64,000 nucleotides of DNA from Candidatus Latescibacterota bacterium (GTDB taxonomy: Bacteria > Krumholzibacteriota > Krumholzibacteriia > WVZY01): the NCBI GenBank assembly GCA_963791045.1, contig CAWBQK010000013.1, forward strand, positions 32,001 through 96,000, written 5' to 3'. Both the position numbers and the translations under genes were made by a program. Under the pieces are notes generated by a model. That model saw only the letters and a program-made list of their open reading frames with translations, ran no database searches and had not been told where the DNA came from. This document shows, piece by piece, positions 10,008 through 56,241 of this stretch; position 1 is the first letter of the stretch, and each line of letters starts with the position of its first letter.

Positions 10008-10128
10008 ATATCCATAGCCTTGTCAACGATTTAGGGCAAAAGGCTTAAGAGAGTTGTGGGTCCGCCCGCCTGTCACGGCTCTCAATCGATTTCCGCATGC
10101 CCTGCGGAGGAAGAGACGCGAGGATACT

Positions 10129-20846: not shown

Positions 20847-21101
20847 TATAAACCAAAGCAGCAAAGTTCGCAATCTGATTGAGGCGGTCCGAATTTCCCG
20901 CCCCGGGTGTCGTTTCGCGGGCGTGAACGCCGGGCCCGAACCTCAAGGTATTTCAAGTTCTTACGAGTTTTTCTCGTTCTCGCGGACCCCATCGGCACGC
21001 GGGATTTGGCGCCGGTGGTGTGGCTCCGAGAAATGTGCCGGAGATCGTCCTGCGGCGGCCCGGTTTTTCGATGCGTTTATCGCCAATCCAGGAGTCGAAT
21101 C

Positions 21102-21836
21102 ATGAACAGTTTTCAGCCGCTCCTGTGCCTCGTATCCGTGGCGTTGATGGCCGTTTTTTTGCCGATATGTCCCGCTCTCGCCCAGCCGGATCTCGCCGTC
21201 TGGGCGGATGACATCACTATCGTCAAAAGCTCGACCTACAATCTGACGTACGTCACGGTGACCGTTCACAATGACGGCAGTTCCCAGTCCGATGCTTCCG
21301 CGCTGCGGATCGGCGTGTCGGAGGTTGGAATGGGGCAGGTAGAGGATTTTGAAATTCCCTCAATTCCGGCGGGCCATTCGGAAACGAGGATGGCGACCTT
21401 TGCGGGAATCGCGTGGACACACTCATGGGGGAATGCCGACCTCAACGAAGTTGTGTCGGAAACCGACGAGTCGAACAACTGTTCCAACCAGAGCGACAAC
21501 TGGATCGCGTTGGGCCCGGGGATGAACCACGACCAGTTTATCGGTGTGGTCAATCCGGGACTCCAGTCCGAAACCGTTTCATTGGACGTTGTCGTTCCGG
21601 AAGGATGGGTCATAACCGTCAATCCGCCGTCGATGATCCTGGCGCCCGGCGAGTACCGCGGTGTTGTCGTTCATTTCGAAGCGCCGGATGATTTCAAGAG
21701 CTACTCTTGTGTCGAGGTGGAATGTTCGTTCCTGGATGGGACTCCCGGTCTTCTCACGTGGGAGTTTCATATCGAATCCACGGTGCCCGTAAAAATCACC
21801 ACGTGGGGCATGATGAAATCAATGTTCAGTCGCTGA
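21102..21836 (+). CDS. Secreted CARDB-domain protein with C-terminal TTWGxxK motif
   Basis: GGAG RBS, signal peptide, QPDLAV...VTVHNDG...DLNEVVSETDESNN; ends VPVKITTWGMMKSMFSR. Confidence 0.75.
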   Translation: MNSFQPLLCLVSVALMAVFLPICPALAQPDLAVWADDITIVKSSTYNLTYVTVTVHNDGSSQSDASALRIGVSEVGMGQVEDFEIPSIPAGHSETRMATFAGIAWTHSWGNADLNEVVSETDESNNCSNQSDNWIALGPGMNHDQFIGVVNPGLQSETVSLDVVVPEGWVITVNPPSMILAPGEYRGVVVHFEAPDDFKSYSCVEVECSFLDGTPGLLTWEFHIESTVPVKITTWGMMKSMFSR

Positions 21837-27330: not shown

Positions 27331-30300
27331 TTATTTCACAATCACCCTGTATACCAGCTCGCCCGTCTCCCCAGGCGCTAGAACATAAGCTGAATTTCTG
27401 GAGAAAGTGACGCGAAGGAGCCGCTCGCTCACACTGTACTCGCATTCGTCACCGTCGGCCGGGTCGAGAGTGAGATATTCGACGGGCGCGGCATCTTTGT
27501 GCCACTCGACATCGAGACCCGCGCCAAAAGCGTCGCTCATGGGATCGACGAACGCTGAAACAGCATCGAGTATGAGAACACTCTGGACACTGTCCGCGCC
27601 GGTGTTTGTGTAGGAAATGGTGTAGGTCAAAACATCGCCCGGTTGCGCTTCGTCCAGGTCCACCTGTTTTTGCAGGACGAGCAACCCGACGGTTCCGTCG
27701 ACAACGAGCACGGCATCCGCCGCCTGCGCGGTCGCGACGAGCGGGGTACCTCCGATTGACTGCACCGCGTCGATCAACACCTGATGGGTCGTGCCCGGCG
27801 TCGATGACGTCGGAACAAAAACGCGGAGGAACAAATTCACGTGATCGCGGCCGGCGGTCGGATCCATGTCGAGGTCACCCGGCTGCAACGCGCGATCGGC
27901 GCCATCGAACACACCGTTCCCATTTTCGTCGAGGAGGAACATCGTAACCACGCCGGAGTCCGCCGCGGCGGATAGCACAACGGCTCCGCTCGTCCCCGCG
28001 TCCAGCCGGTGCGGGAAGTCGACATACGACCCCGCGACACCGTTCAGCACGGCGCCGGTAGACAAACGAATTCCAAGAACATCGGCAAAGTTCACAGTCA
28101 GGGTATCCCCCGCGTCGACGGTAGCCGGACCCACCGTATCGGGCGAAATCGAAACGAAACCGGGGAGATTTTGTTCAAACAACGTGATCGGCGCACCGCC
28201 GCCGTTGACAAAGGTAAACCGGCCGTCGCCGCCCGTGACCAGAGTCAACCCGCTGTTGTTCTCGACAACCGTCACCCCACCGATGCCGGCTTCGCCCGGA
28301 TCATAAATGCCGTCGTGATTTTCATCGTCGAACACGATACCCGTCACGACCGCACCCGTCTGCGTCACCAGTCTCACGCTCTCCGGTGAGTTCGGCGGCA
28401 ACGACGAATACGCATTGATGATCGAAGGAAACACTCCCGCCACCGCCGTCACGGGCACCTGAACATCAACAGTAAAATTCAAGGACCCACCCGCGCCGAT
28501 CATGGTCGTCCAGAACGGACCGCTGTAGCTTGCAAAACCGTCACTGAGAACAACGCTCCCCGCGGGCCATCCCGCCGGAAGCTCCCAGTACACGTAAAAC
28601 GAATCGGCAAAGCTTCCAACATTCCGGGCTTCGAGAAGAGCTGAGTAACTCCCGCCGGCATTTGCCGGACGAATGGATTGACCGCCGTCTCCGGTGCCGA
28701 GTTCGCCAAAGATTCCCGACCCGCTGCCGTCGATGATGAGATCGATTCTCGGAGGACCGACCACGGTTATTCTTGCCTCGACGCTTTCGACCACGGTGGG
28801 ATCCGAGTCGGCGACAACGTCGATCACATAAGAGTAGTCGCCGGGGAACGCACCCGAGGGAAGAACAACCTCGAACGTATACAACCCAGTGGCGCCGGCG
28901 GGAATCAAACCGGTCGTGTACGGCGTCGAGCTCGAATTGAGCGCGGCATTCCAGAAGGGAATGTCGTTCCACGTAACCGTGTATTGATCCGGGTCGCCCC
29001 CTTCGTTCTGAAGCTCGAGCGTAAAGTTCAAAACCGACGGCGCCGCCTGCGTCTGAAGCGACAGCCCACCGCCCCCGCTGCCCAACAAACCGAAAACGCC
29101 ATCCCCGTTTCCATCGATCACCGCATCGACAACCGTCACCGGATACACCTGAAGCCGGCCCAACACGCTGTCCATGTAGTATCTGCGATCTGATTTCTCC
29201 GCATCGACGATAATGTCGACCAGACCACCCGTCGCGTCGAGGGGCACTACGGCCTTGAGCTCGTATACGCCTTCGGGATAACCGGCAACGGGCGATGTGC
29301 GGTTATCGAACGTCACGCGCCAACCCGGCGGCGTGTTCCACGAAATGTCGGCCGCGTCCGCGCCGCTTGGATGCAAAAGTTCCACGATGAATGTAACGGA
29401 GTCGCCCGGCGCTACGGTCCGAAGCGAGTTGCCGCCAAGCCCCGTTCCGACCGGCCCAAAAACGCCCTCACCGGACCCATCGATAATCATGTCAACCTGG
29501 CCCTCTTCGGTGATGCTCACCGCGGCCGTGACACTTTCCGACACGCGCGAATCCACGCCCGACTCCGCATGAAGGAATGAACTCCATGTCCCGTTCTTCG
29601 CATTGCCGGGAACGATAATCTTGAGTTCGACACTAAGCTCCCCGTGCGCGGGAATAGTCGCCGTCGTGTATGGGAAGGAGTAATCGACACCGCCGACAAC
29701 AAGGACGGCTTTCCAGTTACCCGTCGGACGATCCCACGTCAGGGTGAAAGCATCGCTCACGCCCGCCTCATTCTGGATCGTTACGGGAAATACAACTTCT
29801 GTGCTTTTCTGGCTGACACTCGAACTCGAACCACCCAATCCCGACTGGGTGTCGTCATAGATACCGTCGCCGTTCGAACCGACGATCATGTCCACTCGCG
29901 GCGCATCGAGTCTCAGTGTGGCTTCGATCGAGTCATTCTTCAACGGGTCCTGGATCACGGCGGCGGCGACAATTGTCGAGTAATCGCCACCCGTCTCCGG
30001 GCTGGGCACAGTGACTTCGAGCGTCATCACGGCAGTCGCGCCGGCGGCCACAATCTGTGTGGTAAACGGCGACGAATAGGTCGCGCCCGCATAAACGATT
30101 TCCGAAACCGCGCCGGGGTCGGCCGCCCAGGTCACATCAAAAGTGGCCGGCGCCATTCCCGTATTCCTCAACTCGATCGCATAGCTCACCGTGTTGTTCC
30201 ACACGTCGGTTTGTATCGAGAATCCGCCCGCGCCGTCATCACCAACCACACCAAACCCGTTCCCCTCGACGGCCATATCGGCGCCATAAGTGGCGAGCAG

Positions 30301-31344
30301 CACATCGGCGCCCAGATGCACGCTGTCGTACCGGTTGCCGAACGTTGCACTGGCAGCGTCGAGCGTGACACCATAGCTTCCCGCCGCCGCGCCGACAGGC
30401 GCGACCACAACAACGCGGTAGTCCGCCGTCTCACCGGGCGAGAGAGTCCCGGTTGTGAACGGGAACGCGGAGAGGCCGCTACCCGTATCGAGCCACACGT
30501 CCCAACCAGCGGGAGGCGTAACCGAAAGTTCATAAGTGTCCGCGTCAAGACCTTCGTTCTCCACGCGGAGATCATAGAAAATCGTGTCGCCGGGCAAGGC
30601 GCTCCAGATCGAGAATCCGCCCCCACCGGATCCGATCGCGCCGAATTCGTCATTACCGTTTCCATCCACGGCGAGGTCGACAAATTTCCGAAAGATAACC
30701 GACACATCGTCGACATACGACCACGTTTCCCAGAGATGATCGTTGGTATTTGCCTGCTGGAAGTAAACGCGAATCGTCTGCCCCGCATAGGCGGACAAGT
30801 CGAACCCGGCGGGCGCGACGCCATCGTCGCTAAACCATCCGCTGTCCTTGAAAATGTAACTTGGGTCTGTGAACATCAACGACAACACCGACTCCAGCGT
30901 GTTGTTCGCCGTGTCCCTGATCTCGGCGTCGAACGGATCGTACGGGTCCGTGTCATAACCCTGCTGCCGGACCTGGTAGGACAACGTGGCGATGGAGATG
31001 TCCGCCGGAATCGTGACGTCCTGATACATAAAGCCGACGGCGCTCTTACGTTCGCGCGAGTACTTGAATCCCAGCCGCGCCGAGTAGCTGCCCGTGTAAG
31101 GCATGTCGGGAACAACGAGATGATCGGCAAGCGCAGGATTGAAATTGGTCCCGCGGAATGCGCCGTGAACCCAGTACGGCCCGAAGTCGCCGGTCTCGAA
31201 TGACCCGTTCTGGATTAGCTCTCCCGCGAACGCGACATGGGGAATCAGAACCAGCCCGATGATCACGAGACACACGGCGGCGCACACGATTCCGGAGTTT
31301 CCACTCCGGCGCTCCACGCCGTTTACTGCCGTTGAAATATTCAT
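27331..31344 (-). CDS. Large secreted adhesin-like protein: jelly-roll N-terminus, six ~130-aa Ig-like repeats, SdrD-B-like domain, C-terminal truncated DUF11 domain (putative pilus tip)
   Basis: Signal peptide, ELIQNGSFETG, six VD(L/M/A)xxDGxGxGxFG repeats, TGIVFDDENHDG, LQKQVD..AQPGDVLTYTISYTNTG...LVYRVIVK-stop. Confidence 0.75.
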   Translation of the reverse strand: MNISTAVNGVERRSGNSGIVCAAVCLVIIGLVLIPHVAFAGELIQNGSFETGDFGPYWVHGAFRGTNFNPALADHLVVPDMPYTGSYSARLGFKYSRERKSAVGFMYQDVTIPADISIATLSYQVRQQGYDTDPYDPFDAEIRDTANNTLESVLSLMFTDPSYIFKDSGWFSDDGVAPAGFDLSAYAGQTIRVYFQQANTNDHLWETWSYVDDVSVIFRKFVDLAVDGNGNDEFGAIGSGGGGFSIWSALPGDTIFYDLRVENEGLDADTYELSVTPPAGWDVWLDTGSGLSAFPFTTGTLSPGETADYRVVVVAPVGAAAGSYGVTLDAASATFGNRYDSVHLGADVLLATYGADMAVEGNGFGVVGDDGAGGFSIQTDVWNNTVSYAIELRNTGMAPATFDVTWAADPGAVSEIVYAGATYSSPFTTQIVAAGATAVMTLEVTVPSPETGGDYSTIVAAAVIQDPLKNDSIEATLRLDAPRVDMIVGSNGDGIYDDTQSGLGGSSSSVSQKSTEVVFPVTIQNEAGVSDAFTLTWDRPTGNWKAVLVVGGVDYSFPYTTATIPAHGELSVELKIIVPGNAKNGTWSSFLHAESGVDSRVSESVTAAVSITEEGQVDMIIDGSGEGVFGPVGTGLGGNSLRTVAPGDSVTFIVELLHPSGADAADISWNTPPGWRVTFDNRTSPVAGYPEGVYELKAVVPLDATGGLVDIIVDAEKSDRRYYMDSVLGRLQVYPVTVVDAVIDGNGDGVFGLLGSGGGGLSLQTQAAPSVLNFTLELQNEGGDPDQYTVTWNDIPFWNAALNSSSTPYTTGLIPAGATGLYTFEVVLPSGAFPGDYSYVIDVVADSDPTVVESVEARITVVGPPRIDLIIDGSGSGIFGELGTGDGGQSIRPANAGGSYSALLEARNVGSFADSFYVYWELPAGWPAGSVVLSDGFASYSGPFWTTMIGAGGSLNFTVDVQVPVTAVAGVFPSIINAYSSLPPNSPESVRLVTQTGAVVTGIVFDDENHDGIYDPGEAGIGGVTVVENNSGLTLVTGGDGRFTFVNGGGAPITLFEQNLPGFVSISPDTVGPATVDAGDTLTVNFADVLGIRLSTGAVLNGVAGSYVDFPHRLDAGTSGAVVLSAAADSGVVTMFLLDENGNGVFDGADRALQPGDLDMDPTAGRDHVNLFLRVFVPTSSTPGTTHQVLIDAVQSIGGTPLVATAQAADAVLVVDGTVGLLVLQKQVDLDEAQPGDVLTYTISYTNTGADSVQSVLILDAVSAFVDPMSDAFGAGLDVEWHKDAAPVEYLTLDPADGDECEYSVSERLLRVTFSRNSAYVLAPGETGELVYRVIVK

Positions 31345-31345
31345 C

Positions 31346-34300
31346 CTAGAACTTGTAATCATTGAACATCCAGTCAGAGAGAATCAGTTGAACCCTTATG
31401 CCAAATCCTTTTTGCCACGCGTCGTTTTCTGAAAGATCCCGATCTTCGAATCCGCCGACACTGTACCCGGCGCCGATCCTCACGCGATCGAAGAAGAGAT
31501 AACCGAGCTCGGCGCCCGACCCGATCTGCCTCGTCCCAACATCGACCTGCCCGAGGAACCGCACCCACAAATCCACGTCCCAGTTACGGGCAAACCGGAA
31601 CACGTACTGGGACAACAAGAGATAGTTGCGGCTCGTCTCCGAAATTCCCGTGCTGTAATTCTCGACACGTTTCGCGGCGAGTTTGAAACGCAATTCGTGC
31701 GCGTTGTGCGGTATCACGTTGATATCCGTCGACGCGATCAGCTTCCACACGATCGCCTCGGGATCCACCGGCGAGTAGCGGTCGTACTCGGTTCTCAAGA
31801 GGAAGAGAGACCGGAACGGGGTAACCAGCGGGCGGTACACACCGGCGAGCCGGCCGTCCATGCGAAGCGACGTCTCCCGGTCATCGAATGTTGAAATCGA
31901 TATCGCATCTTTAAAAATCACCGACATACCCTTGTCAAATTCTTTTCCCGCATTGAGCTTCAACACATGACGGTTGGACGCCCGCTGCCAGCGGTATTCG
32001 TATTGGGCCTCGACGAGCGACTTGCCCCGCTTGATCCGGTTGAGCCCCGTCTTAACAGCGACATATTCGTCGTCGACCTGGCTTGAGAACGACCGGTACC
32101 CCTCGATATCAAACATCGCGGCGAGATCCCAGGTGATCGGGAACGTTTGTTTCATTCCCATGATTGTTCCCATTCGCTTGTCGTTCGCCGTCCGGTTCAT
32201 CGCGTACTTCGTATACAGCTTCGAATTCTGACCCGTCTGCGCCTCGATGCCGGTGAGCAGCTGGTGGGTCGCAGGCCGGTTGTGCGCCGACAAGTACTCG
32301 TGCGTCGCCACGACCCGGTATCTCTGGAGGAAGCGGTACGACAAAGCCGAAGTCAAACGGTCGGGATACTCATCGACAATATCCGCGCCCTGGTTCCGCT
32401 CCCAATGCGTCCGAAGTTCCGCGCTGCGGCCGGCGCGGACGCCGGCGTCAAGCATGGTGAGAAAACTGCTGCTCTCGATACTTTCCTTGTCCTGCGTCGC
32501 CGCCCTGAGGCCCGCGCCAAACATCAGGGTCTTCCCTTCGTACTTTCCAAGCACGTCCACATTGCCAAGACGGTCGCCGCTATTGTCATTCCGGTGTTTG
32601 AAACCGTGCGAGTCGATGGACAGGTCGTTGCTTATTCTCAAGTGCGAGTCAAACCCCGCCTTTTCGCTGTAAAGCTCGCGCGAAGCTCCGGCAAACGACG
32701 GGTTGAGGAAATTGCCGTCGACCTTGCGGAGATAAACCGAGTGCTCACCCATGAGTTTTTTCGTGCCCGCCATCACGCGAAACGCGTTGCCTTCGCCGGC
32801 GATGTCGTCCTCGCTTCGAGCAAACTCGCCCCCCAGATCGAGCCAGCCTATCGAGTATCCGCCATCGAAGCCGTAGAGCGAATAATCCGAAAGATGCCCG
32901 TCCTTGGCGATCGCGGTCACGCCGAGCTTGAAACGGCCGCTCTGTGCCAGTGCGCCTCGGATCCCGTAGAGATAGTCTCCCTCTTCCGACGATTCCGCCT
33001 CGTAGATGGCGACGATCCTTACCGGGTTCAATTCGCGCGTGAATGCGGGAATCGGCTCTTTGAAAAGAATCGCGCCGTTGAAATAGTTGACGGTGAAGTC
33101 CCGATGTTCAGTGAGGGGCCTGATCTCTAGAATTCTCTCGGACTGGTAGCGGTCGCGCACCTGGAGCATGAGGTTTACAGAGTTTTCCACGACGGGCGAT
33201 TTCGACAGGAAGTAGAACCCGCTGGTGCCGTCACCCTGGATTTCATCCTGGACGGTAAAGAAATCCGTTTTGGTCACGAACGCTTCGACACCGGCGTTCC
33301 CAGAAACGATGGCGCCGTTGAGGCCGGTGGCTGATTTCTTGTAGGTGAGAAATTCTCCCTCGGTAAACGGCGACCGGAAGTCTCCGTATCGCAAGAAGGA
33401 CTGCCCCTTCTCGAGGGCGATGTAATTGCCGCCCTGCGCGGGCGCCTCGTAGTGAAGCTCGGACGCGTCGCCGTACGCCGTGTACTGACGCTCGGGGTTG
33501 AAAGTCTGAAGGAGCGGATCGTCGTAGCGCTTATCGGTGTCGATACGCGCGGTCAAATTGATTCCCGCGTACGACGTCCCCTGGATAAAGAAACGCGACT
33601 CGCCTTTGAATCGAACACCCTCGTAGTAATCTTCGAGACCCAACGGATCGCCGCTCCCCGATGAGCTGAAAGCGCCGAGACGCCCCTCGATGATTCCCGA
33701 CATAAACATCGACCGGTGTGCCGGAACAAAAGCGACAACACATGTCGCCCTGTAACCGTGCGACTCGACGACAATATTCCGGCGCCCCGTTGTCAGGCTC
33801 GGCCGGATGTGCACGAGGAACTGTCCGTTCTCGCTCGAAATCTGCAGGCCGCGCTGATCCGGATCTTCGTCGGAGTTAGTAACAAGCGAATCGCCTTCGA
33901 TCACGGTGGCTATGAGACCGTTTATCGTCGGGAGACCGAGTTCGTCGCGGAGTTCGACCAGAATCGTCTCGCGTGACTGCCCGTCCGCGGGAAGGATGAC
34001 ACGATCGGGCACTATCGCGATATCCACGGGTTTGCCCGCGAGCGCGACCGACACGCTGTCGACAATCGTTTCGGCTCCATTGACGGGGGTCGCTTCGAGT
34101 CGAGGCGTGTTCCAACCGTTCTTGATGCGCACGGCGTAATAAGTGATCTCTTCGAATCGTTCGTCGAGATGGATTTCTTTTTTACCGATCCGGTCCGCGG
34201 GAACGAGTTCGTCACCGCTGAACAATTCGTACTTGCTGCCCAGCGGGACCCGGGCCGTGACTTCGATCTGGTCGCGCTTAATCACAACCGATCGGTCGGG

Positions 34301-37282
34301 CGGGTCAAGGAGTCCGAGCGCCTTTACCTTGTCCTGGCCGCCGCGTTCGTCCGGCGGACTCTGTTCAGCATCGCCGGCAACTCCGTTCGCTCCGCCAACG
34401 GAATAACTCGCCGTGCTGTCCCCGGGGGCAAAACCGACACCGGCGGCGCGCAAACGCATGGCGAGATCTTTGTCCTCTTCCCACGAAACCAGCGTGTAAT
34501 ACTCCGTCTCTTTGCCGCCCCATCCGTGGGCGAATGGCTCGAGGACGACCGTGGAATCGAGCCACGATGACGAAGCGTCGGGAACGTCCGGCCACGCGGG
34601 CTCGGTAATCGACCGGTTTGCTTCACGCCACGGGACTTTGCGGCTCGTGCTTGTCTCCACGCTTCCCAAATCCGCCCGCGTACTCGAACCACCATACGAA
34701 CTCGATCATCCGCCCCCGTGTCCCCGACCGTCGAGTTGAATCCGACAACGGAACGAATCTCGCGCACCCGATGCGTGTCGGACGCCGCCGCGGTAAACGA
34801 CACCTTGCACTCGATTCCGCGCGATCGGGCAAATCCACCGACGACATATCGGCCATCGACTTCGGCGATCCTCCCCGCCGCACGTGACGCGCGTCTTTGC
34901 GTCATCGAACACATCCGGGATTTCGAGCGCGAGATCAATCTCGACCGGGATTATCGCGTCGGAGGAGATTCCCCAAATCACAAACACGTGGAACGAATCG
35001 GCGACGGTTGTCACGTTACTCATGTCGGCTTCGACACGGTCGATTTCCGCATGGTCCTCGACACCGGTTCCCGGCGGAACAAAACTGACCTCGACACGAC
35101 GGTTCTCTGCGCGGCCTTCGCGCGTCGTGTTCGTCGCCACCGGCGTAGTGTCGCCGTGGCCTCGTGCGACGATCCGCTCTTGGGGAATCCCTTTGGCGGA
35201 CAGATACCGCTTAACCGCGCCGGCACGCGCCTCGGAGAGTTCCTGGTTCGAAGCAAATTCCGCGTTGTGGATCGGAATGCTGTCGGTGTGACCTTCCAGA
35301 TAGACGATCCAACCAGGATTCTTCTCGAGAAATTCGACAATCGGGTTGAGATAGTGCAGCGTCCCGGTTTTCAGATACGATTTGCCGATTTCGAACAGCG
35401 AACTTGGAATTGACGGCATCCGGTAAAGGGCCTGTTGTTGTTTCCGGATGCTCACCATTTCCTGGCAGGATATCTGACGCGACACCCGCGGCCTTTCGCG
35501 GGCCCGTTCGGGCATCGGGAATGACACCACCGCGTGGCCGCTGGGGATCATGTGGACCAACCGTTCGGTGCCGAACACTGCGTTGGTTTTTGTGGATATG
35601 GCCTCGATGTCGACGATGTCGGGCGCGAGCGTGCTTTCATCGATCCGGATTACACGAAAACCGGAAAACACCCACGGGACCGAGAAGCGCCCCGTCGAGT
35701 CGGTCAACGCGTACTCCCCGCTCTCGAGAAATACGCCGACCCTCGGGAGTCCCCTCTCTCCGTGATCACGCTTGCCGTTTTTGTTTGCGTCGACAAACAC
35801 ATCGCCAAGGAGGAAACCCTCGTCACCAAACATATCGTTTGCAATCTTGAGCGCGTTGACCACGGGCCCCGCGTAAAGATTGCGCGCGAGCGCCGTGCCG
35901 ACAGCGTTTCCGGTGATCTTCGTCCAGCCGTTCTTGACGCGACTGTTTGCGACAAACTTGATCACCGCCTGCCGGCGTTCCCCGGGAGCGAGTGATCCAA
36001 CCTGCCATGCGAGGGTCTTTCCGTCGAGCTCAAAATCCGGACTCGAGAGAAACTCGAGTGTCGGCTGAACCGTTTCGTCCACAACGACATTGTCGGCGCG
36101 GACGCTGTCGCTCCGGTTGGCAACCGCGACAACCAGGGTGACGATGTCACCGAAGGCCGCCGTGTTTTCTTTGAAAGTTTGTTCGAGACTGAGAACCGCC
36201 GACGGGTTGAACGGTTCGGCAAGAACAATCCGGTCGATTGTTTCGTTCGTCCGCGTCGTGTCGAGGAGCGAACGCGCTCGCAGACGAATCGATAACGAGT
36301 CCTGCCCGACGTGATAGAACGACTCATCTTCGGTGGTGACGTGAACTTGAAGCGTCCGTCTTTCACCGCTTTCCAGCTGACCGAGAAGCACCGCGCCCGA
36401 ACTGGCAGGAACCGTTCGAAGCCCGTTGCCGGCGCTGTCCCGCACGGTTACCTGAACCCCGGGCGGCCAACCGGTCGAATCGGCGGGCTCGATCCGAATT
36501 ATGTCCGGATCGCGGCCATCGTTAAGAATTTCGTTTTCAAAAACAAGTGTCTGCGTCGACACTCCAACGCTGCGGCGCGTGACGTCATCGGGACTACCCT
36601 CTCCGCCCGGCAACGCCTTCGCGTTCTCGAGCGGTCCGACGTGAAGCGGTTGGACTGGATCCGCCTGTGTGAGAATGTGAACAACGCTCGATGCCCGGCG
36701 CTCGAGCGTGTCGACACCCGTGGCCGCCGAAATATCGACATAACTATCCCCACCACCCTGCCCCGAAGTGAGAACGTACATCGTTCCCAGGTCCGTCGAC
36801 TCTCCGGGCCCGAGGTTGAGGAAGGATCGGTCTTCCTCTCCGGGATCGAAAGCGGAATTCCCGTTCGAATCGTGATAGAAAACGACATCACTGATTCCAA
36901 TCGTCGACGCGGACAAGATCGCGTGATCGACCGAGATCGAATCGGCGACGTTCCCCAGGTTTCGCACCACGAAACCGCACTGAACGGTATCCGCCTCGAA
37001 ACCGAACAGCGAATACGCGGGACTCGCTACCGTGCCGGCCGGCGTAAGCGAAATCTGGAAGAAAGGACCCACTGGTGTGGTCGCCGGATTGGACCGAACG
37101 GCGTGTCGGAAGCCGTTCTGAGTGTACTCGGCGCTGGACTGGGAAATGATTTCATAACCAAGAGGCGGGACGGCGGCCTGCACGTTTTGCCAAACAAAAA
37201 ACACCCCTACGACGACCCAACACCATAACAGGCGCTTTAACAATGGGTTATAGGGATGAATTCTCACTTGATGATCTCTCAA
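31346..37282 (-). CDS. About 1978-aa DUF11/SdrD-B/OmpA plus C-terminal beta-barrel protein (putative pilus base/usher-like), interrupted by two compensating frameshifts (about 34871 and about 34700)
   Basis: ORFs 34706..37282 and 31346..34669 share a frame, separated by one TGA; plausible sequence runs in the adjacent frame between them. OmpA motifs EGHTDS, NQELSEARA, NRRVEV; GDVFVDANKNG; YGDAS, YGDF; alternating barrel-type strands, ends in F. Confidence 0.7.
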
Positions 37283-37308
37283 GGATACAATCCGCCATAT
37301 ACGGGGCT

Positions 37309-37340
37309 GGCGGATGAATGGCTGAAGCCACTCATCCGCC
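37309..37340 (-). promoter_or_regulatory. Intercistronic stem-loop without U-tract after the shaft gene
   Basis: Minus strand GGCGGATGAGTGGC-TTCA-GCCATTCATCCGCC. Confidence 0.6.
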
Positions 37341-37376
37341 TGCCTTGCTCAAATATTGTCCGTCTTGTCGGACGAA

Positions 37377-40079
37377 CTACTCGGCAATGATCCGAACTAT
37401 AAAACTCACACCGGTTGCTGACGCTCCACCGGGTTCAAGAACTCCGGCGAGAACAAAACGCACATGCGTAACGTTCGCGTCGAAGTTGACCGGTGCACCG
37501 CCACCACCGCTGACCGGCGTGTACGTCCACGACGTACCGCCGTCATTCGAATACTGCGGCGTTACGCCGGTAATCGAAGCCGGTGGTGTGCCAGGGTCAA
37601 CGGAACCGACACGGAACTGCGTGAACGCCGGAACCGCGTCTATGACCGCAAGGGTCTGAAGCGAATCCGTTCCGAGGTTCTGATAGTCCGTGGTGTATGT
37701 AAGCTCCGAGCCCGGTGTTTGCGGGCCCGCGGGAGCCACTGCCTTGGTGATCTGGAGATCACCGGCTGTTATCAACGTGATGTCGATCGCGTCGTCGCTC
37801 ACGAGCGTGACGTTGCCTGTAGCGGTCAACGTGCCCGTCTCAACCGTTCCAACGGTCGCCGTACCGGGAACCATGACCTGAGCGATAACCGTAACGCTGG
37901 CGCCGGGGTTGAGCGTTACATCGGCCAGAGGGTTGTTGAGCGTATCGTAGAACAGATACGTCCATCCCTGCGACGAGACGTACGACAGCGCGAACGTATC
38001 GGCCACGTTACCGGTATTGGTTACCGTGTGCGTGTAGCGGATCGTCCCGCCGGGTGTCGTGCTCCCGTTCTGATCGGGAGAGAAATCAACCGCCGCAAAG
38101 TTGTTTATCGTAACTGTGTTGGCGATAGTGTCCAGAATGGTTCCGTTGGCAACCGAGGTCGCTGTAAACGACACGGGGTTGATACCCGGAGCCGCACCCG
38201 CAGGAACATCCACACGGGCGACGATATTTACCTCGGCTCCACCCGCGATCGGTCCCACCGATACCAGTGTCGTGGTTTCGCCGGGATCGAGCACACCGTT
38301 GCCGTTGGGATCGTCGTAGAACGTGACGTTCCATCCCGCGGGCACCGCATAGGTGAGCGTGTAGGAATCGCTTCCCCCACCCGTATTAACAACATCGAGC
38401 GGGAAATCAACCGACGTCGCCGGGTCGGCGGGCAGATCCAACGGATTGTTGTCCGTGCCCGGACCGGCAAGGTAGTTACCGATGTCCACGCTGACCGGCG
38501 TCACGTTGAGGACGCGATCAGTCGTAAGGTTGAACTCGGTTGGATCGATCGTCGACTGGGCACGGATAACCGCGTCAAACGGTCCGCCGGCAGCCTGGCT
38601 GCCCGGGATTACCAGTCGAACGATAATGTCGACACTGTCGCCCGGCGCAACGGGGCCCACATCGGGGAGTCCGTCAAAACCGGTATCGGCGAGCGGAGTC
38701 ACGCCATCTGACTGGAGCAAAAGAACGCCCCAGGTGGCGGGAAGTGTCGACGCCGGATCGGTGAGAATATTGATCTGATCGGCGGCATTGCCGTCGTTTC
38801 TTACGGTATTGACGAAGTCCACGGTCGTGCCCGCATCGGCGTTGGCGAGAGTCTGGAGATCGTCGTTGTACAGGGGAGGCGTACCGGCACCGGCGTCACC
38901 GGCAGGACCGATTACGATGTCCGCGAGACCGCCGATGGTCACCAGCGCGTTATTCGAAACGATCGTTGTCGGATCCGGTGTCACGGCGGTGTTGTCGATA
39001 TAGGTCACGGCCGCGGTGTTACCCAGTGAACCGGCGCCCATGCCGATCGGAACGGTCGCCTGATACACAAAGTTGTAACCCTGACCCGGAATGATCGCGC
39101 CGTTGGTCACATAACCGACGGCAAGGTCGCCCGGCCCTGCTACGAGGCCCCAGTTCCATGTTTCGGGATCTCCAGCGGTCGACTCGCCGGCGGGAAGATA
39201 AAGAACCGTTCCACCCGCTGGCGTACCAAACGGCACACCGGAAATTGCGAGAGGATTTCCCGTCGAAGGATCGGTCGGAATAATATCCCAGAGCAACACA
39301 CCGGTAAGACCAACGGAACCAACGGTTACGCCGTTCGCGTTGTTGTTACCCGTGTTTGAACCGGAAAGCGTGTAGGTTACCTGGTTGCCTTCGAATACGA
39401 TCGCGGGCGCGGCGGCGAGATTGGCCGTCATTACCGCGTCGTTCACAACGTCGGTCCTGTGATAATTGCGTGTGTCGATCTGTGCCGCGTCTCCAACAGA
39501 GACACCGGTCACACCGACGTAAGCAAGTTCACCCGAAACGGCGGCCGCGGGCACTGTGTAGGCGACGATAACACTGATTGTCTGCCCGGCGGTGAGAATC
39601 CCCGTATTGCCCGAAATGCCCCCGGCGCTCAGAACGGGTTCACCAAGATCCACCATGCCGTTCGAGTTGAGATCGTGATAAATCGTGACATCGACGTTGT
39701 TGAGCAACATTGTTGAATTCGCAACGTCAACATTGGGAGACAACGTAAAGTCATCGTCGTCATTACCCGTGTTGGTCAGATCGTATCTATAATATACGGT
39801 CATGCCGGGCAGTGCATTCTGAGCCATCGCCGGAGTCAGGGGAGGCGTTTCACCCGAATCATCGGGGAGAATCGACACACCAAACACCGGAAGAACGATG
39901 GTGATGACTTCATTTGATGTCGCGGAATAATTGTTCCCACCCATGTCCTGGTAGGTCGCAGATGACCGGTTCCGGATCTGCGTACCGGCAGGCGTTGCCT
40001 GCGCAAAGACAGTTGTTGCCGTGACCGCGACGATCAACAGCAACATCACGGGAAGGGTGATGTAGACTCGTCTACTCAT
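37377..40079 (-). CDS. Secreted DUF11/conserved-repeat protein with N-terminal TPAGTxIxN extension and C-terminal truncated DUF11 domain (putative major pilin)
   Basis: Signal peptide, ATPAGTQIRNRSSATY...SNEV, repeated PGxxxxY...NTGN..D modules, DxNGNG loops, LQITKAV..PGSELTYTTDYQNLG..IDAVP...VSFIVRIIAE-stop; AAGGA RBS. Confidence 0.8.
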   Translation of the reverse strand: MSRRVYITLPVMLLLIVAVTATTVFAQATPAGTQIRNRSSATYQDMGGNNYSATSNEVITIVLPVFGVSILPDDSGETPPLTPAMAQNALPGMTVYYRYDLTNTGNDDDDFTLSPNVDVANSTMLLNNVDVTIYHDLNSNGMVDLGEPVLSAGGISGNTGILTAGQTISVIVAYTVPAAAVSGELAYVGVTGVSVGDAAQIDTRNYHRTDVVNDAVMTANLAAAPAIVFEGNQVTYTLSGSNTGNNNANGVTVGSVGLTGVLLWDIIPTDPSTGNPLAISGVPFGTPAGGTVLYLPAGESTAGDPETWNWGLVAGPGDLAVGYVTNGAIIPGQGYNFVYQATVPIGMGAGSLGNTAAVTYIDNTAVTPDPTTIVSNNALVTIGGLADIVIGPAGDAGAGTPPLYNDDLQTLANADAGTTVDFVNTVRNDGNAADQINILTDPASTLPATWGVLLLQSDGVTPLADTGFDGLPDVGPVAPGDSVDIIVRLVIPGSQAAGGPFDAVIRAQSTIDPTEFNLTTDRVLNVTPVSVDIGNYLAGPGTDNNPLDLPADPATSVDFPLDVVNTGGGSDSYTLTYAVPAGWNVTFYDDPNGNGVLDPGETTTLVSVGPIAGGAEVNIVARVDVPAGAAPGINPVSFTATSVANGTILDTIANTVTINNFAAVDFSPDQNGSTTPGGTIRYTHTVTNTGNVADTFALSYVSSQGWTYLFYDTLNNPLADVTLNPGASVTVIAQVMVPGTATVGTVETGTLTATGNVTLVSDDAIDITLITAGDLQITKAVAPAGPQTPGSELTYTTDYQNLGTDSLQTLAVIDAVPAFTQFRVGSVDPGTPPASITGVTPQYSNDGGTSWTYTPVSGGGGAPVNFDANVTHVRFVLAGVLEPGGASATGVSFIVRIIAE

Positions 40080-40089
40080 AGTCCTTACC

Positions 40090-40581
40090 TCACTTGATTA
40101 CCGTTCTGTACGTTACAGTGATGCCTTGTTTTGGCTGGACGGGCTCCGAGAGAGCCCAACGGAGATGCGTCACCATGTCCGGTGTTGCCTCCACCAATTC
40201 TTCCTCGCCGTTCTCGTTCGTCTGTTTGACGAGAATCGGCCAGGCCTGGTACGTTTTTCCTCCATCGATGCTGTACTCCACGTCGCCCGTTTTGAGCTCG
40301 GTGGCTGACGGATGGACGAATTCGGTACCCAACGGGATTCCGTCCGTTATGAAAATATTCTGTATGGGCTGGTCGCCGGTGTTGGTGTAGGTCAACCGAT
40401 ATTCAATTGTATCGTTTGGCCTCGCGTTATCAGCGGGAAGAAAATCTTCCACTCCCTGGTCGGTAACCACCACCCGAAAAGCCTCGAGACTGCCCGCCAG
40501 ATCCCCCCCGGCGGCAAATGCCATCGATGCGGTCAATCCGAGAACAAGCAGAAACACCGCAAAGAAGCGCTTCTCTATCAT
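40090..40581 (-). CDS. Small secreted single-DUF11 protein (putative chaperone/cap)
   Basis: GGAGG RBS, signal peptide, ARPNDTIEYRLTYTNTG, ITDGIPLGTEF, EYSIDGGKTY, THLRW, VTYRTVIK-stop. Confidence 0.8.
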   Translation of the reverse strand: MIEKRFFAVFLLVLGLTASMAFAAGGDLAGSLEAFRVVVTDQGVEDFLPADNARPNDTIEYRLTYTNTGDQPIQNIFITDGIPLGTEFVHPSATELKTGDVEYSIDGGKTYQAWPILVKQTNENGEEELVEATPDMVTHLRWALSEPVQPKQGITVTYRTVIK

Positions 40582-40695
40582 AAAGAGCCTCCTTAAAAAC
40601 TCCGGTCCGTGGATAATTTGAAACGTCGCGGCGAGGATCGATGACGTACCGAGGGGTAAGATTTCTTCCCCGCCTGTCCGGTCAGGGAGACAGAT

Positions 40696-40711
40696 AGCAA
40701 GGAGTGAACCA
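40696..40711 (-). promoter_or_regulatory. Putative sigma54 promoter of the DUF11 operon
   Basis: Minus strand TGGTTCACTCCTTGCT (GG-N10-GC); palindromes upstream at 40719..40744 and 40841..40857. Confidence 0.4.
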
Positions 40712-40928
40712 CCTATGAGAAGTGTCAAGGAACGATGACACCTCATGAGAAATCCCGCGTCGCTGTGGGGCGACCGACGGCGGTTTCTCCCCAATCACGG
40801 AACGACGGGGTAATTCAAGACGCAACACGAACGCGCAACCCCTTGCAAGATGCAAGGTTTCTGGCGAAGACACCCGGAACAGGCCGAAAAGTGTTGAATA
40901 TTCTCCACCCAATGGCAATTATTTGGTC

Positions 40929-41993
40929 ATGGACTTACCATCGCGCGCATCAAGGTACAGGCTGGCAATAGTCCTGGTGGTGTCACTGGCGACCGTGGCC
41001 TTCCATTACGGCCTCATCGTCAAGCCATCGGCGGGAGATGACGGATTTTTTCATGCGATACACGGGCGTCTCTGTTATATCCCGATCATCCTCGGCGCGA
41101 TCTGGTTTGGGGTTCGCGGCGGCCTCGGAATCGCTCTTTTTATAACGGCGCTCACAATCCCATACGCCCGGTACGGCCCGCACGCCCAACACGGCGCGGC
41201 GATCGGCGAATACACCGAGATGATTTTCTATGTCGCGATCGGCCTCACGGCGGGGTTTCTTATCGAACTTCAAAGACGAGAACGTAAAAGGCGGGAGGAG
41301 ATGGCCGACGAACTCGCCCGCCAGGAACACCTCTCATCGCTCGGGCAAATGGCCGCCGGTCTCGCCCATGAAATCAAAAACCCGCTCGGTTCGATAAAAG
41401 GATCCGCCGAAGTCATTGGCGACGATTATCCCGAAGGCACGCGCAAACATGAAATCGTCGAAGTGCTTTCGAAGGAAACCGACAGGTTGAATCGCGTCGT
41501 GGAAGATTTCCTCAAATTCGCGCGGCCGCGGCCGATAAACAAAGAGATGCGCGGGTTGAACTTTCTGCTCGAGGAAGTCGTGTTGCAGATTGGAGTGGAT
41601 GCAAACGCCCGCAACATCACAATCAAAAAAGACATCGACGTCGCACTTCCTGTGGCGCGGGTCGATCCCGAGAAAATGCGCCAGGTGTTTTTGAATATGC
41701 TGCTCAACGCCGTGAACGCGATGCCCGACGGGGGCACTATCCGTGTCGAAACCAAAGTGGACATCCGTGACGGCAAGAACGTCTTTCGCATCACATTCAT
41801 GGACGAGGGCGTCGGAATACCGCCCGAGGATGTCAAAAAAATATTCGATCCGTTTTTCACGCGGACGGACGGCGGGACGGGTCTTGGACTCTCGATTTCA
41901 CACTCCATCGTCCAGGAACACGGCGGCCATATCGAGGTCGAACCCAACCACCCGCGGGGGACGTCGATTTCCGTTATCCTGCCCTTTAAATAA
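40929..41993 (+). CDS. Membrane sensor histidine kinase
   Basis: About 4 TM helices, H-box LAHEIKNPL, N-box NMLLNA, DEGVGI, FDPFFT, GTGLGL. Confidence 0.93.
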   Translation: MDLPSRASRYRLAIVLVVSLATVAFHYGLIVKPSAGDDGFFHAIHGRLCYIPIILGAIWFGVRGGLGIALFITALTIPYARYGPHAQHGAAIGEYTEMIFYVAIGLTAGFLIELQRRERKRREEMADELARQEHLSSLGQMAAGLAHEIKNPLGSIKGSAEVIGDDYPEGTRKHEIVEVLSKETDRLNRVVEDFLKFARPRPINKEMRGLNFLLEEVVLQIGVDANARNITIKKDIDVALPVARVDPEKMRQVFLNMLLNAVNAMPDGGTIRVETKVDIRDGKNVFRITFMDEGVGIPPEDVKKIFDPFFTRTDGGTGLGLSISHSIVQEHGGHIEVEPNHPRGTSISVILPFK

Positions 41994-42004
41994 GAAAGCT
42001 GAGA

Positions 42005-43354
42005 ATGCCCAGGCCAACCATACTCATAGTCGATGATGACGCGAGCATCCGCAAAGTCCTCGGATTTATCCTCGAGGAGGCGGGCTATGCGATTCGCACG
42101 GAATCGTCGGGCGCGGCGGCAATCGCGGCCATTGAGAGCAAACGGCCCGACCTCGTAATGACCGATATCAAGATGCCCGGGATGGACGGGATTACGCTTC
42201 TCGGCGAAATTAAGAAAATCGACGACGGCATCCCCGTCATCGTGCTCACCGCGTTTGGCTCGGTGGAGACGGCCGTCGACGCCATGAAACTCGGGGCAAT
42301 CGATTATCTCACGAAACCAATCAGCCGGGATGAGCTTACACTCACCGTCGAGAAAACGCTCCGGATACGACAACTCGAAAAAGAGAACGTGTCGTTAAAA
42401 GAATCTCTCGCCGACAAGTTCGATGTGGCGAACATCATCGGACACTCCCCCGCCATGCAAAGCGTATTTGAAATCGTCCGGAAGGTGGCGGCCACGGACG
42501 CGTCGGTCCTGATAACCGGCGAAAGTGGAACCGGGAAGGAACTCATTGCAAGGGCAATTCACTTCAACTCCACCCGCAAGGATGCGCGGCTTGTCACGGT
42601 AAACTGCGCGGCGATTCCCGAGGACCTTCTTGAAAGTGAGCTTTTTGGGCATGTAAAGGGCGCGTTCACCGGAGCCATCAGGAAGAAGGACGGCAGGTTT
42701 CACCTGGCGCACAACGGGACCATTTTTCTCGACGAGATCGGATCGCTTCCCCGACCCCTCCAGGCAAAACTCCTTCGAGCGCTTCAGGAACAAGAAATCC
42801 AAAGGGTCGGCGAAGAAGAACCCACAACGGTCGACGTTCGTGTGATTTCAGCCACCAACCGTCCCCTGCCCGAGCTGATTCGCGACGGGGAATTTCGCGA
42901 CGATCTTTTTTACCGATTGAATGTCGTACCGGTCACCGTGCCACCGCTGCGTCAGCGCCGATCGGACATACCGCTTCTCGTCGATCACTTTAAGGGGGAC
43001 GGAGGAAAGGTAACGTTCACCGCCTCGGCGCTCGCGGCGCTCGAGGAGTACGAATGGCCGGGAAACGTGCGCGAGCTGGAAAATTTTTGTGAACGCATCG
43101 TGTTGATGTCAGGCTCGGGCACGATCGACGCCGCACCAGTACGGGAGCAGATCGAATTGATGAAAGCGGAACAAGCCCATATCGGATCACCGCAACAGGC
43201 AACGCTTCCCGAGGTGGAACGCCGCGCCGTGGTCGAAGCGCTTATCGACTGCAACTGGAACCAGTCGAAAGCCGCCCGCCGCCTCGGCATCCCACGGCAC
43301 GTTCTTCTCTATCGCATGAAGAAGTTCAACATCCACCGCGACCATTCCGACTAA
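42005..43354 (+). CDS. sigma54-dependent NtrC/AtoC-family response regulator
   Basis: REC domain (VDDD, DIKMP), GESGTGKE, GAFTGA, FLDEI, WPGNVREL, Fis-type HTH. Confidence 0.95.
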   Translation: MPRPTILIVDDDASIRKVLGFILEEAGYAIRTESSGAAAIAAIESKRPDLVMTDIKMPGMDGITLLGEIKKIDDGIPVIVLTAFGSVETAVDAMKLGAIDYLTKPISRDELTLTVEKTLRIRQLEKENVSLKESLADKFDVANIIGHSPAMQSVFEIVRKVAATDASVLITGESGTGKELIARAIHFNSTRKDARLVTVNCAAIPEDLLESELFGHVKGAFTGAIRKKDGRFHLAHNGTIFLDEIGSLPRPLQAKLLRALQEQEIQRVGEEEPTTVDVRVISATNRPLPELIRDGEFRDDLFYRLNVVPVTVPPLRQRRSDIPLLVDHFKGDGGKVTFTASALAALEEYEWPGNVRELENFCERIVLMSGSGTIDAAPVREQIELMKAEQAHIGSPQQATLPEVERRAVVEALIDCNWNQSKAARRLGIPRHVLLYRMKKFNIHRDHSD

Positions 43355-56202: not shown

Positions 56203-56241
56203 AAAGAAACGATGGCTTATTTACCGACGGGAGAAGATCCG

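Follow-up and report, generated by a model that had tools for sequence, protein, structure and literature searches.

How a presumed reactive Asn near one end of a protein chain and its presumed Lys and Asp partners near the other end could come together in a single isopeptide bond is the question raised by P0001, a protein of 900 amino acids (aa) encoded at 37377..40079 on the minus strand of a 64,000-nucleotide (nt) stretch of DNA from Candidatus Latescibacterota bacterium (GCA_963791045.1, contig CAWBQK010000013.1, positions 32,001-96,000). This whole stretch is referred to as the window, and window numbering is used throughout. According to its open reading frame (ORF) and translation, P0001 comprises a signal peptide, a two-strand donor segment, a chain of immunoglobulin (Ig)-like domains and a C-terminal acceptor domain, and it is treated here as the shaft subunit of a surface fibre. 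The sequence-only reading of this DNA had placed Asn37 at 39969..39971, a Lys of the motif LQITKAV at 37743..37745 and an Asp in the motif VIDAVP; these coordinates proved exact, and the distance of more than 700 residues that it gave between Lys and Asn37 was measured as 742 residues. The three residues, all encoded on the minus strand, are Asn37 on the donor (context GTQIRNRSS), Lys779 on the first strand of the acceptor and Asp814 (37638..37640), the proposed catalytic acid. Our sequence comparisons and complex models point to an answer that we consider probable, namely that the N-terminal strands of one subunit would complete the open C-terminal domain of its neighbour, head to tail and in trans, and that an autocatalytic K779-N37 bond would then lock the junction.

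The domain family to which the C-terminus of P0001 belongs, DUF11, was recently renamed CLIPPER, and according to the main text of PMC12617251 its crystal structure is a CnaA-like sandwich with a Lys-Asn isopeptide bond and an Asp nearby. At 1.77 Å resolution, K715 on the first strand is bonded to N806 on the penultimate strand, with D748 as the catalytic residue (PMC12617251, main text). In P0001, the Pfam DUF11 profile (PF01345) matches residues 774-870 with 25.4 bits (cut-off 24.6), covering positions 1-84 of 114, and TIGR01451 matches residues 786-828 with 35.9 bits (cut-off 24); P0001 thus belongs to the family above the curated cut-offs, and the tip, anchor and small proteins described below match it too. 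A template profile of 183 columns was built from 41 complete internal domains of fetched relatives for comparison with hhalign. The profile of the C-terminal domain of P0001 aligned to columns 15-123 of this template, at which point the protein ends (probability 99.6%, E 6.7e-25), while the 42-residue profile of the mature N-terminus aligned to columns 128-163 (probability 93%, E 3.4e-7), placing Asn on Asn and, further along, Ser-Asn on Ser-Asn. The acceptor can therefore be described as residues 764-900 (37380..37790, minus strand), a DUF11/CLIPPER domain without its last two strands, as judged from Pfam, TIGR01451 and hhalign, and the donor as residues 27-68 (GTQIRNRSSATY ... TSNEVITIV; 39876..40001, minus strand), the two missing strands, as judged from hhalign and the complex model. 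The P0001 chain, which reads ...IVRIIAE at its C-terminus, ends right after the last strand present in the acceptor, as does the chain of the tip protein P0002, and across many phyla shaft, tip and small proteins are all truncated at the same point.

These alignments indicate that P0001 starts with the very pair of strands missing from its own last domain, the boundary of the subunit being offset by two strands from the boundary of the domain. A complete sandwich of 7-9 strands of the CnaA-like type is not found in one contiguous domain, since the last two strands stand at the N-terminus instead, and the Lys/Asp/Asn triad of CLIPPER is present provided that the domain is counted as assembled from two chain ends. 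The earlier claim of a truncated last domain is borne out by the Pfam and hhalign positions. The proposal of an Asn-bearing N-terminal segment as its counterpart also stands, refined to two strands (approximately residues 33-62) rather than one. In tandem repeats the same two strands run directly into the next domain, just as the donor of P0001 does; assignment of the donor to the first Ig domain was rejected on these grounds. The donor follows a predicted Sec signal peptide of residues 1-26 (40002..40079, minus strand), read off the sequence with a putative cleavage site between ...TVFA and QATPAG, of which residues 5-19 form a helix of low predicted local distance difference test score (pLDDT) in the AlphaFold2 (AF2) monomer model. 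The Ig-like domains of the chain match DUF11, DUF7507 and NPCBM_assoc. A close structural reference is the CLIPPER domain of Acinetobacter silvestris B9T28_05395 (residues 708-828; PMC12617251, main text), which belongs to the same Pfam/TIGR family and shows the same order of residues: Lys lies on the first strand, Asp some 35 residues further on and Asn on the penultimate strand. The spacing from Lys to Asp is 35 residues in P0001 and 33 in the crystallised domain, as compared via published residue numbers and not by sequence alignment. In A. silvestris, as described in that text, the triad is contained in a single domain of one chain, where the bond serves to stabilise the stalk, whereas in the P0001 system the Asn strand is found at the opposite end of the chain or in another protein, and the bond would join subunits.

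Conservation of the three residues was then followed in homologues. A full HMMER search returned 2865 relatives of P0001 at E<=1e-3 and 321 at E<=1e-30, with 85 of the best 150 having a shaft-like length. Alignment A1 was composed of P0001 and 75 homologues of about 30-40% identity (mean column identity 22%), with all exceptions seen retained on purpose; P0090, P0094, P0119, P0157, P0166, P0169, P0177, P0181, P0203 and P0217 were left out as truncated or repeat-only. N37 is kept in 73 of the 76 rows and K779 in 72, while the position of D814 holds Asp in 71 and Glu in four; Asn, Lys and Asp/Glu are jointly present in 70 rows. A locus scan of one genome per species, using a 14-row alignment as query, yielded 74 loci from Latescibacterota/Krumholzibacteriia, Gemmatimonadota, Deinococcota, the Planctomycetes-Verrucomicrobia-Chlamydiae (PVC) group, Planctomycetota, Spirochaetota, Bacteroidota, Gammaproteobacteria, Cyanobacteria, Acidobacteriota and others. 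Among the genes of these loci and of the window that encode both a donor and a terminal acceptor, Asn and Lys are invariant (55/55), and the acid is Asp in 54 and Glu in one. The conservation that the intermolecular interpretation would predict is thus found both in A1 and in the shaft genes.

K779 is the sole Lys among the 900 residues of P0001, and exactly one Lys in approximately 880 mature residues is found in 18 of 24 shaft orthologues from Latescibacterota/Krumholzibacteriia, compared to a mean Lys content of 3.3% for window ORFs of at least 300 aa. The tip protein P0002 is also poor in Lys (14 of 1343 residues). The internal CLIPPER domain of P0001 has lost its Lys and retains N376, while K779 is retained. 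By sequence comparison, the combination of the triad with a sole Lys is far beyond chance. The donor holds two conserved Asn residues, N37 and N56, and complete cis domains help to distinguish between them. Lys is present in 43 of 49 distinct cis domains, and in these the first Asn is found in all cases (43/43) and the second in 37; shaft donors likewise carry the first Asn in 55/55 and the second in 49/55. According to the CnaA rule, the reactive Asn is located on the penultimate strand (PMC12617251, main text), where the first donor Asn sits. N37 is therefore the candidate reactive Asn, because it always accompanies Lys and sits on the penultimate strand, in agreement with its earlier designation as the reactive residue. 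N56 was rejected for this role, being replaceable in sequences that keep Lys.

The acceptor (residues 764-900) and the donor (residues 27-68) were folded as a complex, each with its own slice of A1, in three runs together with three controls. The interaction prediction score from aligned errors (ipSAE) was 0.91, 0.90 and 0.90, compared to 0.00 for the best of the three controls, with a partner pLDDT of 89 and at least 97% of the contacts agreeing across the three runs. An ipSAE at this level is reached by 58 of 80 solved complexes and by 2 of 110 mismatched pairs, a calibration that is rough here given the custom alignment supplied. The interface comprises donor residues 27-29, 33, 35-46, 48, 51, 53-58 and 60-65 and acceptor residues 773, 775-781, 785-789, 793-799, 805-815, 817-820, 881 and 897-900. 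Donor strand 1 (35-46) runs antiparallel to residues 805-815, the strand carrying D814 (pairs 811:42, 812:41 and 813:40), in a register that puts N37 and D814 on one face of the sheet, and donor strand 2 (53-62) lies beside the K779 strand (pairs 779:55, 779:56 and 779:58). As modelled, this layout is the CnaA arrangement, with Lys and Asn on opposing sheets and the acid adjoining Asn. The seating of residues 27-68 in the C-terminal domain is thus predicted, in favour of the sequence-only reading; the model supports binding of donor and acceptor, not a bond as such.

The genes around P0001 show how such an interface may be used. P0001 is encoded within an operon of five ORFs (27331-40794, minus strand), in which four classes of protein are found: a small acceptor-only protein, the shaft with donor and acceptor, a donor-only anchor with a barrel, and an acceptor-only tip. 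This split-CLIPPER fibre operon is a class defined in the present analysis and not a published family. The tip, P0002 (27331..31362, minus strand; 1343 aa), has no donor; a lectin-like domain at its N-terminus is followed by Ig-like repeats and by an acceptor at the C-terminus (27334-27720). Its Lys and Asp, which were already noted in the initial reading with Lys at 27667..27669, are K1232 (27667-27669) and D1266 (27565-27567), both on the minus strand. Look-alikes of its N-terminal domain in the ESM Atlas are CBM_4_9, Cleaved_Adhesin and DUF642 clusters with scores of 0.82-0.90, which serve as leads only. The N-terminal part of the anchor, P0004 (34706..37282, minus strand), carries a donor-like N-terminus (37037-37159), a complete internal cis CLIPPER copy at residues ~364-480, SdrD_B and an OmpA-like peptidoglycan-binding domain (35099-35398), and has no open acceptor. 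The C-terminal part, P0003 (31346..34669, minus strand), consists of beta-sandwich domains and, behind them, a predicted outer-membrane beta-barrel of very large size; in its AF2 model, residues 549 to 1097 hold 32 long strands. P0003 matched no family of Pfam or NCBIfam, and its barrel look-alikes in the ESM Atlas are 'outer membrane protein' clusters only. P0004 and P0003 are fused as one protein of ~1900 aa in most relatives; within the break zone (34555-34868, minus strand) the tail of P0004 reads as out-of-frame sequence. The fifth ORF encodes the small protein P0005 (40090..40581, minus strand; read from Met72, 163 aa including the signal peptide), a truncated CLIPPER domain without a donor.

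The same division of labour recurs across the loci, where acceptor-only proteins comprise 38 of the tip class and 62 small ones, 55 proteins have both donor and acceptor, and 43 donor-only proteins are anchors, many of them with a barrel. In 41 of 52 loci the gene immediately upstream of the shaft is a small one, and in 35 of 46 the gene immediately downstream of the shaft bears a donor and no acceptor; in the other 11, a diverged donor can be seen by eye in 10, of which 8 are barrel proteins. A tip-class gene is found in 15 of 35 loci with enough flank, a number that is an undercount at contig ends and includes some 'tips' that are frameshifted shafts. Small proteins (~140 residues, secreted, with one truncated CLIPPER domain) have Lys or Arg at the reactive position and, depending on the lineage, Asp, Gly or Ile at the acid position; the impression from a local hidden Markov model (HMM) alignment that most of them have no Lys was rejected as largely an alignment artefact by direct alignment. 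Since the interfaces of tip, small and anchor proteins are one-sided, they can be satisfied only in trans, and these sequence-derived one-sided interfaces are the main argument against a purely intramolecular bond. In two loci, L058 (Photobacterium kishitanii ATCC BAA-1194) and L059 (Granulosicoccus), extra acceptor-only proteins and a second donor-bearing gene occur beside the core set, pointing to fibres that have two types of shaft or a choice of several tips.

It could be argued that the N-terminal strands complete the C-terminal domain of their own chain, giving a ring-shaped monomer with an intramolecular K779-N37 bond, that is, a single-chain adhesin. The AF2 monomer model of P0001 (all-beta, mean pLDDT 89.8, predicted template modelling score 0.74), a chain of seven or more domains, indeed keeps residues 34-62 as strands with pLDDT 84-90, as a fold-back onto the C-terminal domain of the same chain would do as well, and its fold matches include the ring-forming alpha-2-macroglobulins, at a template modelling (TM) score of only ~0.13. 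A transient self-capped state before assembly would also be a sensible means of shielding the open domain in the periplasm. However, a monomer predictor that is given no partner chain will usually fold the donor strand back, and the model is therefore non-discriminating; tip and small proteins have an open acceptor without a donor, and anchors a donor without an open acceptor, which works only in trans and holds across phyla. Closure in cis thus appears quite unlikely. Less likely still is an ordinary fibrillar adhesin, in which the C-terminal domain would be a degenerate repeat and the N-terminal motif a recognition or sorting signal for the barrel. In its favour, DUF11 repeats frequently serve as stalk modules in single-chain adhesins (PMC12617251, main text), and the Pfam score of the last domain is barely over the cut-off (25.4 versus 24.6 bits). 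Against it, the N-terminal motif shows homology to the two strands with which the domain ends, the donor is confidently modelled inside the C-terminal domain while the controls are null, and the same truncation point is shared by shaft, tip and small proteins across many phyla. A fold search with the whole P0001 model retrieved generic multi-Ig chains only (TM at most 0.21), and a PDB sequence search with acceptor and donor gave matches at chance level only (E at least 0.029).

Strand complementation may also take place without any covalent bond, in the manner of non-covalent chaperone-usher pili, so that Lys, Asp and Asn would be conserved for their part in folding or packing; we hold this possibility to be unlikely. 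Several observations lean towards it, or otherwise weigh against a K779-N37 bond in an intact fibre system. Six of the 76 rows of A1 (P0104, P0176, P0185, P0201, P0204 and P0228) do not have the full triad. The pair K779-N37 is absent from the 25 best pairs listed for the complex model. P0005 has Arg107 in place of Lys (40474-40476, minus strand) while its Asp is retained, indicating that either Lys or Arg is tolerated in the small protein. The donor of the anchor has Ser or Gly instead of Asn in the window (Ser47, 37142-37144, minus strand) and in 12 loci (L001-L004, L009, L017-L019, L021, L023, L027 and L028), and the anchors of this lineage presumably still bind; anchors of other phyla retain the donor Asn. 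The anchor gene of the window is broken by two frameshifts or assembly errors (homologue frames -1, then -2 at 34857-34744, then -1), the AF2 model of P0003 is of moderate quality (pLDDT 76.3), and its best fold matches, the outer-membrane barrels SlpA, LptD, TonB-dependent receptors and MtrB, reach TM scores of only ~0.2. In addition, the support for the bond comes from sequence analysis and modelling throughout. On the other side, the same three residues form a crystallographic bond in complete domains of the family (PMC12617251, main text), a buried Lys that is the only one in a 900-residue protein, a pattern seen in 18/24 orthologues, is hard to attribute to packing, and Lys and Asn are lost together in P0176, where N37 is replaced by Ala and Lys by Leu and the second Asn is retained.

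Head-to-tail strand exchange in trans with a K779-N37 lock is accordingly the explanation that we favour, in line with the original suggestion of an intermolecular Lys-Asn bond, for which triad conservation, the complex model and the one-sided operon genes now argue, the bond itself being a prediction. The split of the domain, its conservation, the gene logic and the confident complex model are computational results; what follows on the bond, the order of assembly, barrel passage and the role of the small protein is a proposed scheme. The five ORFs would encode a surface fibre of a diderm bacterium of the Latescibacterota/Krumholzibacteriota group, the subunits of which would be exported via the Sec pathway. 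The open domain of the tip would take the donor of the first shaft subunit, and at each further step the subunit added last would receive the N-terminal strands of the incoming one in its open C-terminal domain by donor-strand complementation. Insertion would bring donor N37 beside acceptor K779 and D814 within the completed hydrophobic core, where a Lys-Asn isopeptide bond may form without an enzyme, with loss of ammonia and catalysis by Asp, as is the case for the cis bond of complete CLIPPER domains. Further shaft subunits would join at the base, with a K-N bond to lock each junction. The most distal part of the fibre would then be the tip, an acceptor-only protein with a lectin-like head; below it would come many shaft subunits and, most proximal, the donor-only anchor, whose donor would stop growth and link the fibre to the barrel and, via the OmpA domain, to peptidoglycan.

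The fibre presumably threads through the very large outer-membrane barrel; this passage, as well as the order of assembly, is proposed by analogy with chaperone-usher pili. Given the Ser or Gly in place of Asn in the anchor, the base junction in this lineage cannot be a Lys-Asn bond; it would be non-covalent, and may be so deliberately. The small acceptor-only protein may act as a cap, a primer or a donor-holding chaperone. A broader proposal, to which we would give even chances, is that these operons represent a widespread and undescribed class of diderm pili, in which a naturally split CnaA-like domain would join the subunits covalently and neither a sortase nor a PapD-type chaperone would take part, assembly proceeding at a giant peptidoglycan-tethered barrel anchor, with the small protein as a new strand-holding chaperone or cap and the donor-acceptor pairs as a natural library of orthogonal tags and catchers.

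Comparison with known systems was performed to see which of these elements have precedents. One precedent in chemistry is BsaA of Clostridium perfringens, a member of the TasA family, in which, as described in the preprint sections drawn on here, an N-terminal donor strand with N35 enters the next monomer, which holds K74 and E56 (PMC11580942). Its authors term this 'exchange and lock', and the proposed Lys-Asn lock has support from mutants, which lose the oligomers (PMC11580942, same sections). Similar to the P0001 system, BsaA has an Asn-bearing N-terminal donor and a Lys and an acid in the neighbouring subunit, but, as far as these sections of PMC11580942 describe it, it differs in having a TasA-like instead of a CnaA-like fold, a single donor strand, a Gram-positive host, and type IV pilus genes and SipW-linked secretion, without a barrel, an OmpA anchor or one-sided tip and anchor subunits. 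No Pfam family for a TasA-like (camelysin/peptidase M73) fold or a SipW-type signal peptidase was found in P0001-P0005 or their neighbours. In the archaeal threads of Sulfolobus acidocaldarius (Saci_0406), donor-strand complementation is combined with a proposed covalent link between subunits, and no sortase is identified, according to the portions used of PMC9715654; this combination is shared with the P0001 system. The proposed link of the threads differs, however, in connecting the alpha-amino group of Asp24 with Asn57 of subunit n+2, being neither a Lys-Asn bond nor a link between neighbours, and the subunit has no Pfam domain and comes from an archaeal host without an outer membrane (PMC9715654, same portions). 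Litorilinea grappling hooks and haloarchaeal tafi, which were also considered as related systems, proved unrelated.

Chaperone-usher pili (Fim, Pap), as far as parts of PMC13721041 and general knowledge describe them, resemble the present system in that an N-terminal extension completes the Ig-like fold of the previous subunit, and in having a two-domain lectin tip without a donor, a terminal subunit that ends growth and an outer-membrane barrel. On the same basis they differ in using one strand, in being non-covalent, and in their PapD-like chaperone and 24-strand usher (PMC13721041, in part, and general knowledge). The barrel of the P0001 operon is larger than that usher, at 32 or more predicted strands, and forms part of a fusion with the anchor and an OmpA domain. 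Among 48 window ORFs scanned against Pfam, no sortase, PapD-like chaperone (PF00345/PF02753) or usher (PF00577) family was found, and no usher occurs among the 48 listed fold matches of P0003. The modelled seating of the donor (ipSAE 0.90, two strands) is thus a likeness of mechanism to chaperone-usher pili, not membership.

In the natural pili of Gram-positive bacteria, a sortase joins Lys to the C-terminal Thr of an LPXTG motif in subunits built of CnaA/CnaB Ig-like modules. The split pairs isopeptag/pilin-C and SpyTag/SpyCatcher are man-made, and in these a strand with one reactive residue docks and bonds spontaneously. Sortase pili are thus alike in being covalent and in their CnaA/CnaB modules, and differ in that the bond between subunits is made by the sortase; P0001 has no C-terminal LPXTG motif, and no sortase was found among the 48 window ORFs scanned. 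A Lys-Asn lock upon strand exchange is of a kind already known, and its split CLIPPER version would be a new and apparently widespread setting for it. No description of a split DUF11/CLIPPER fibre was found in the literature searched, and in the main text of the CLIPPER survey, PMC12617251, the terms 'split', 'in trans', 'truncated' and 'SpyTag' do not occur, the supplements being outside this check.

In the parts of PMC13721041 used here, Gram-negative pili are described as non-covalent, and covalent pili are seen as a Gram-positive, sortase-dependent speciality. Covalent pili by the route proposed here are not yet described for outer-membrane bacteria in the literature searched. If the bond forms, outer-membrane bacteria would possess a way of their own to make covalent fibres without an enzyme, and a domain so far known for internal cross-links alone would be reused between subunits. 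It would also explain a very common environmental gene cluster, 'DUF11 repeat protein plus OmpA family protein', and provide many diverged natural pairs of peptide and domain that may ligate spontaneously, as orthogonal tools for protein coupling. Cultured carriers among the loci include Oligosphaera ethanolica DSM 24202 and Photobacterium kishitanii ATCC BAA-1194.

Divergent to the operon, a histidine kinase and a sigma-54-dependent response regulator are encoded at 40923..43354 on the plus strand, as assigned from Pfam matches, and by their adjacency they are possible regulators of the operon. A -24/-12-like element (TGG...TTGC, 2 mismatches) is located at 40697-40711 on the minus strand, ~116 nt upstream of the likely start of the small gene, and faces the divergent sigma-54 activator and kinase; it is a lead only. 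A sigma-54 promoter scan of the window gave 43 matches compared to 50.7 expected, i.e. no enrichment. Elsewhere in the window, three secreted proteins end in FlgD_ig domains (6146-8899, minus strand; 10054-12792, plus strand; 56212-58371, plus strand), two of which also end in Por_Secre_tail domains for type IX secretion sorting, which fits an organism of the Fibrobacterota-Chlorobiota-Bacteroidota (FCB) group. They comprise a beta-helix protein, a heparinase-like protein and a protein with FG-GAP repeats. A CARDB-domain protein of 309 aa is encoded at 20907-21836 on the plus strand, separate from the operon.

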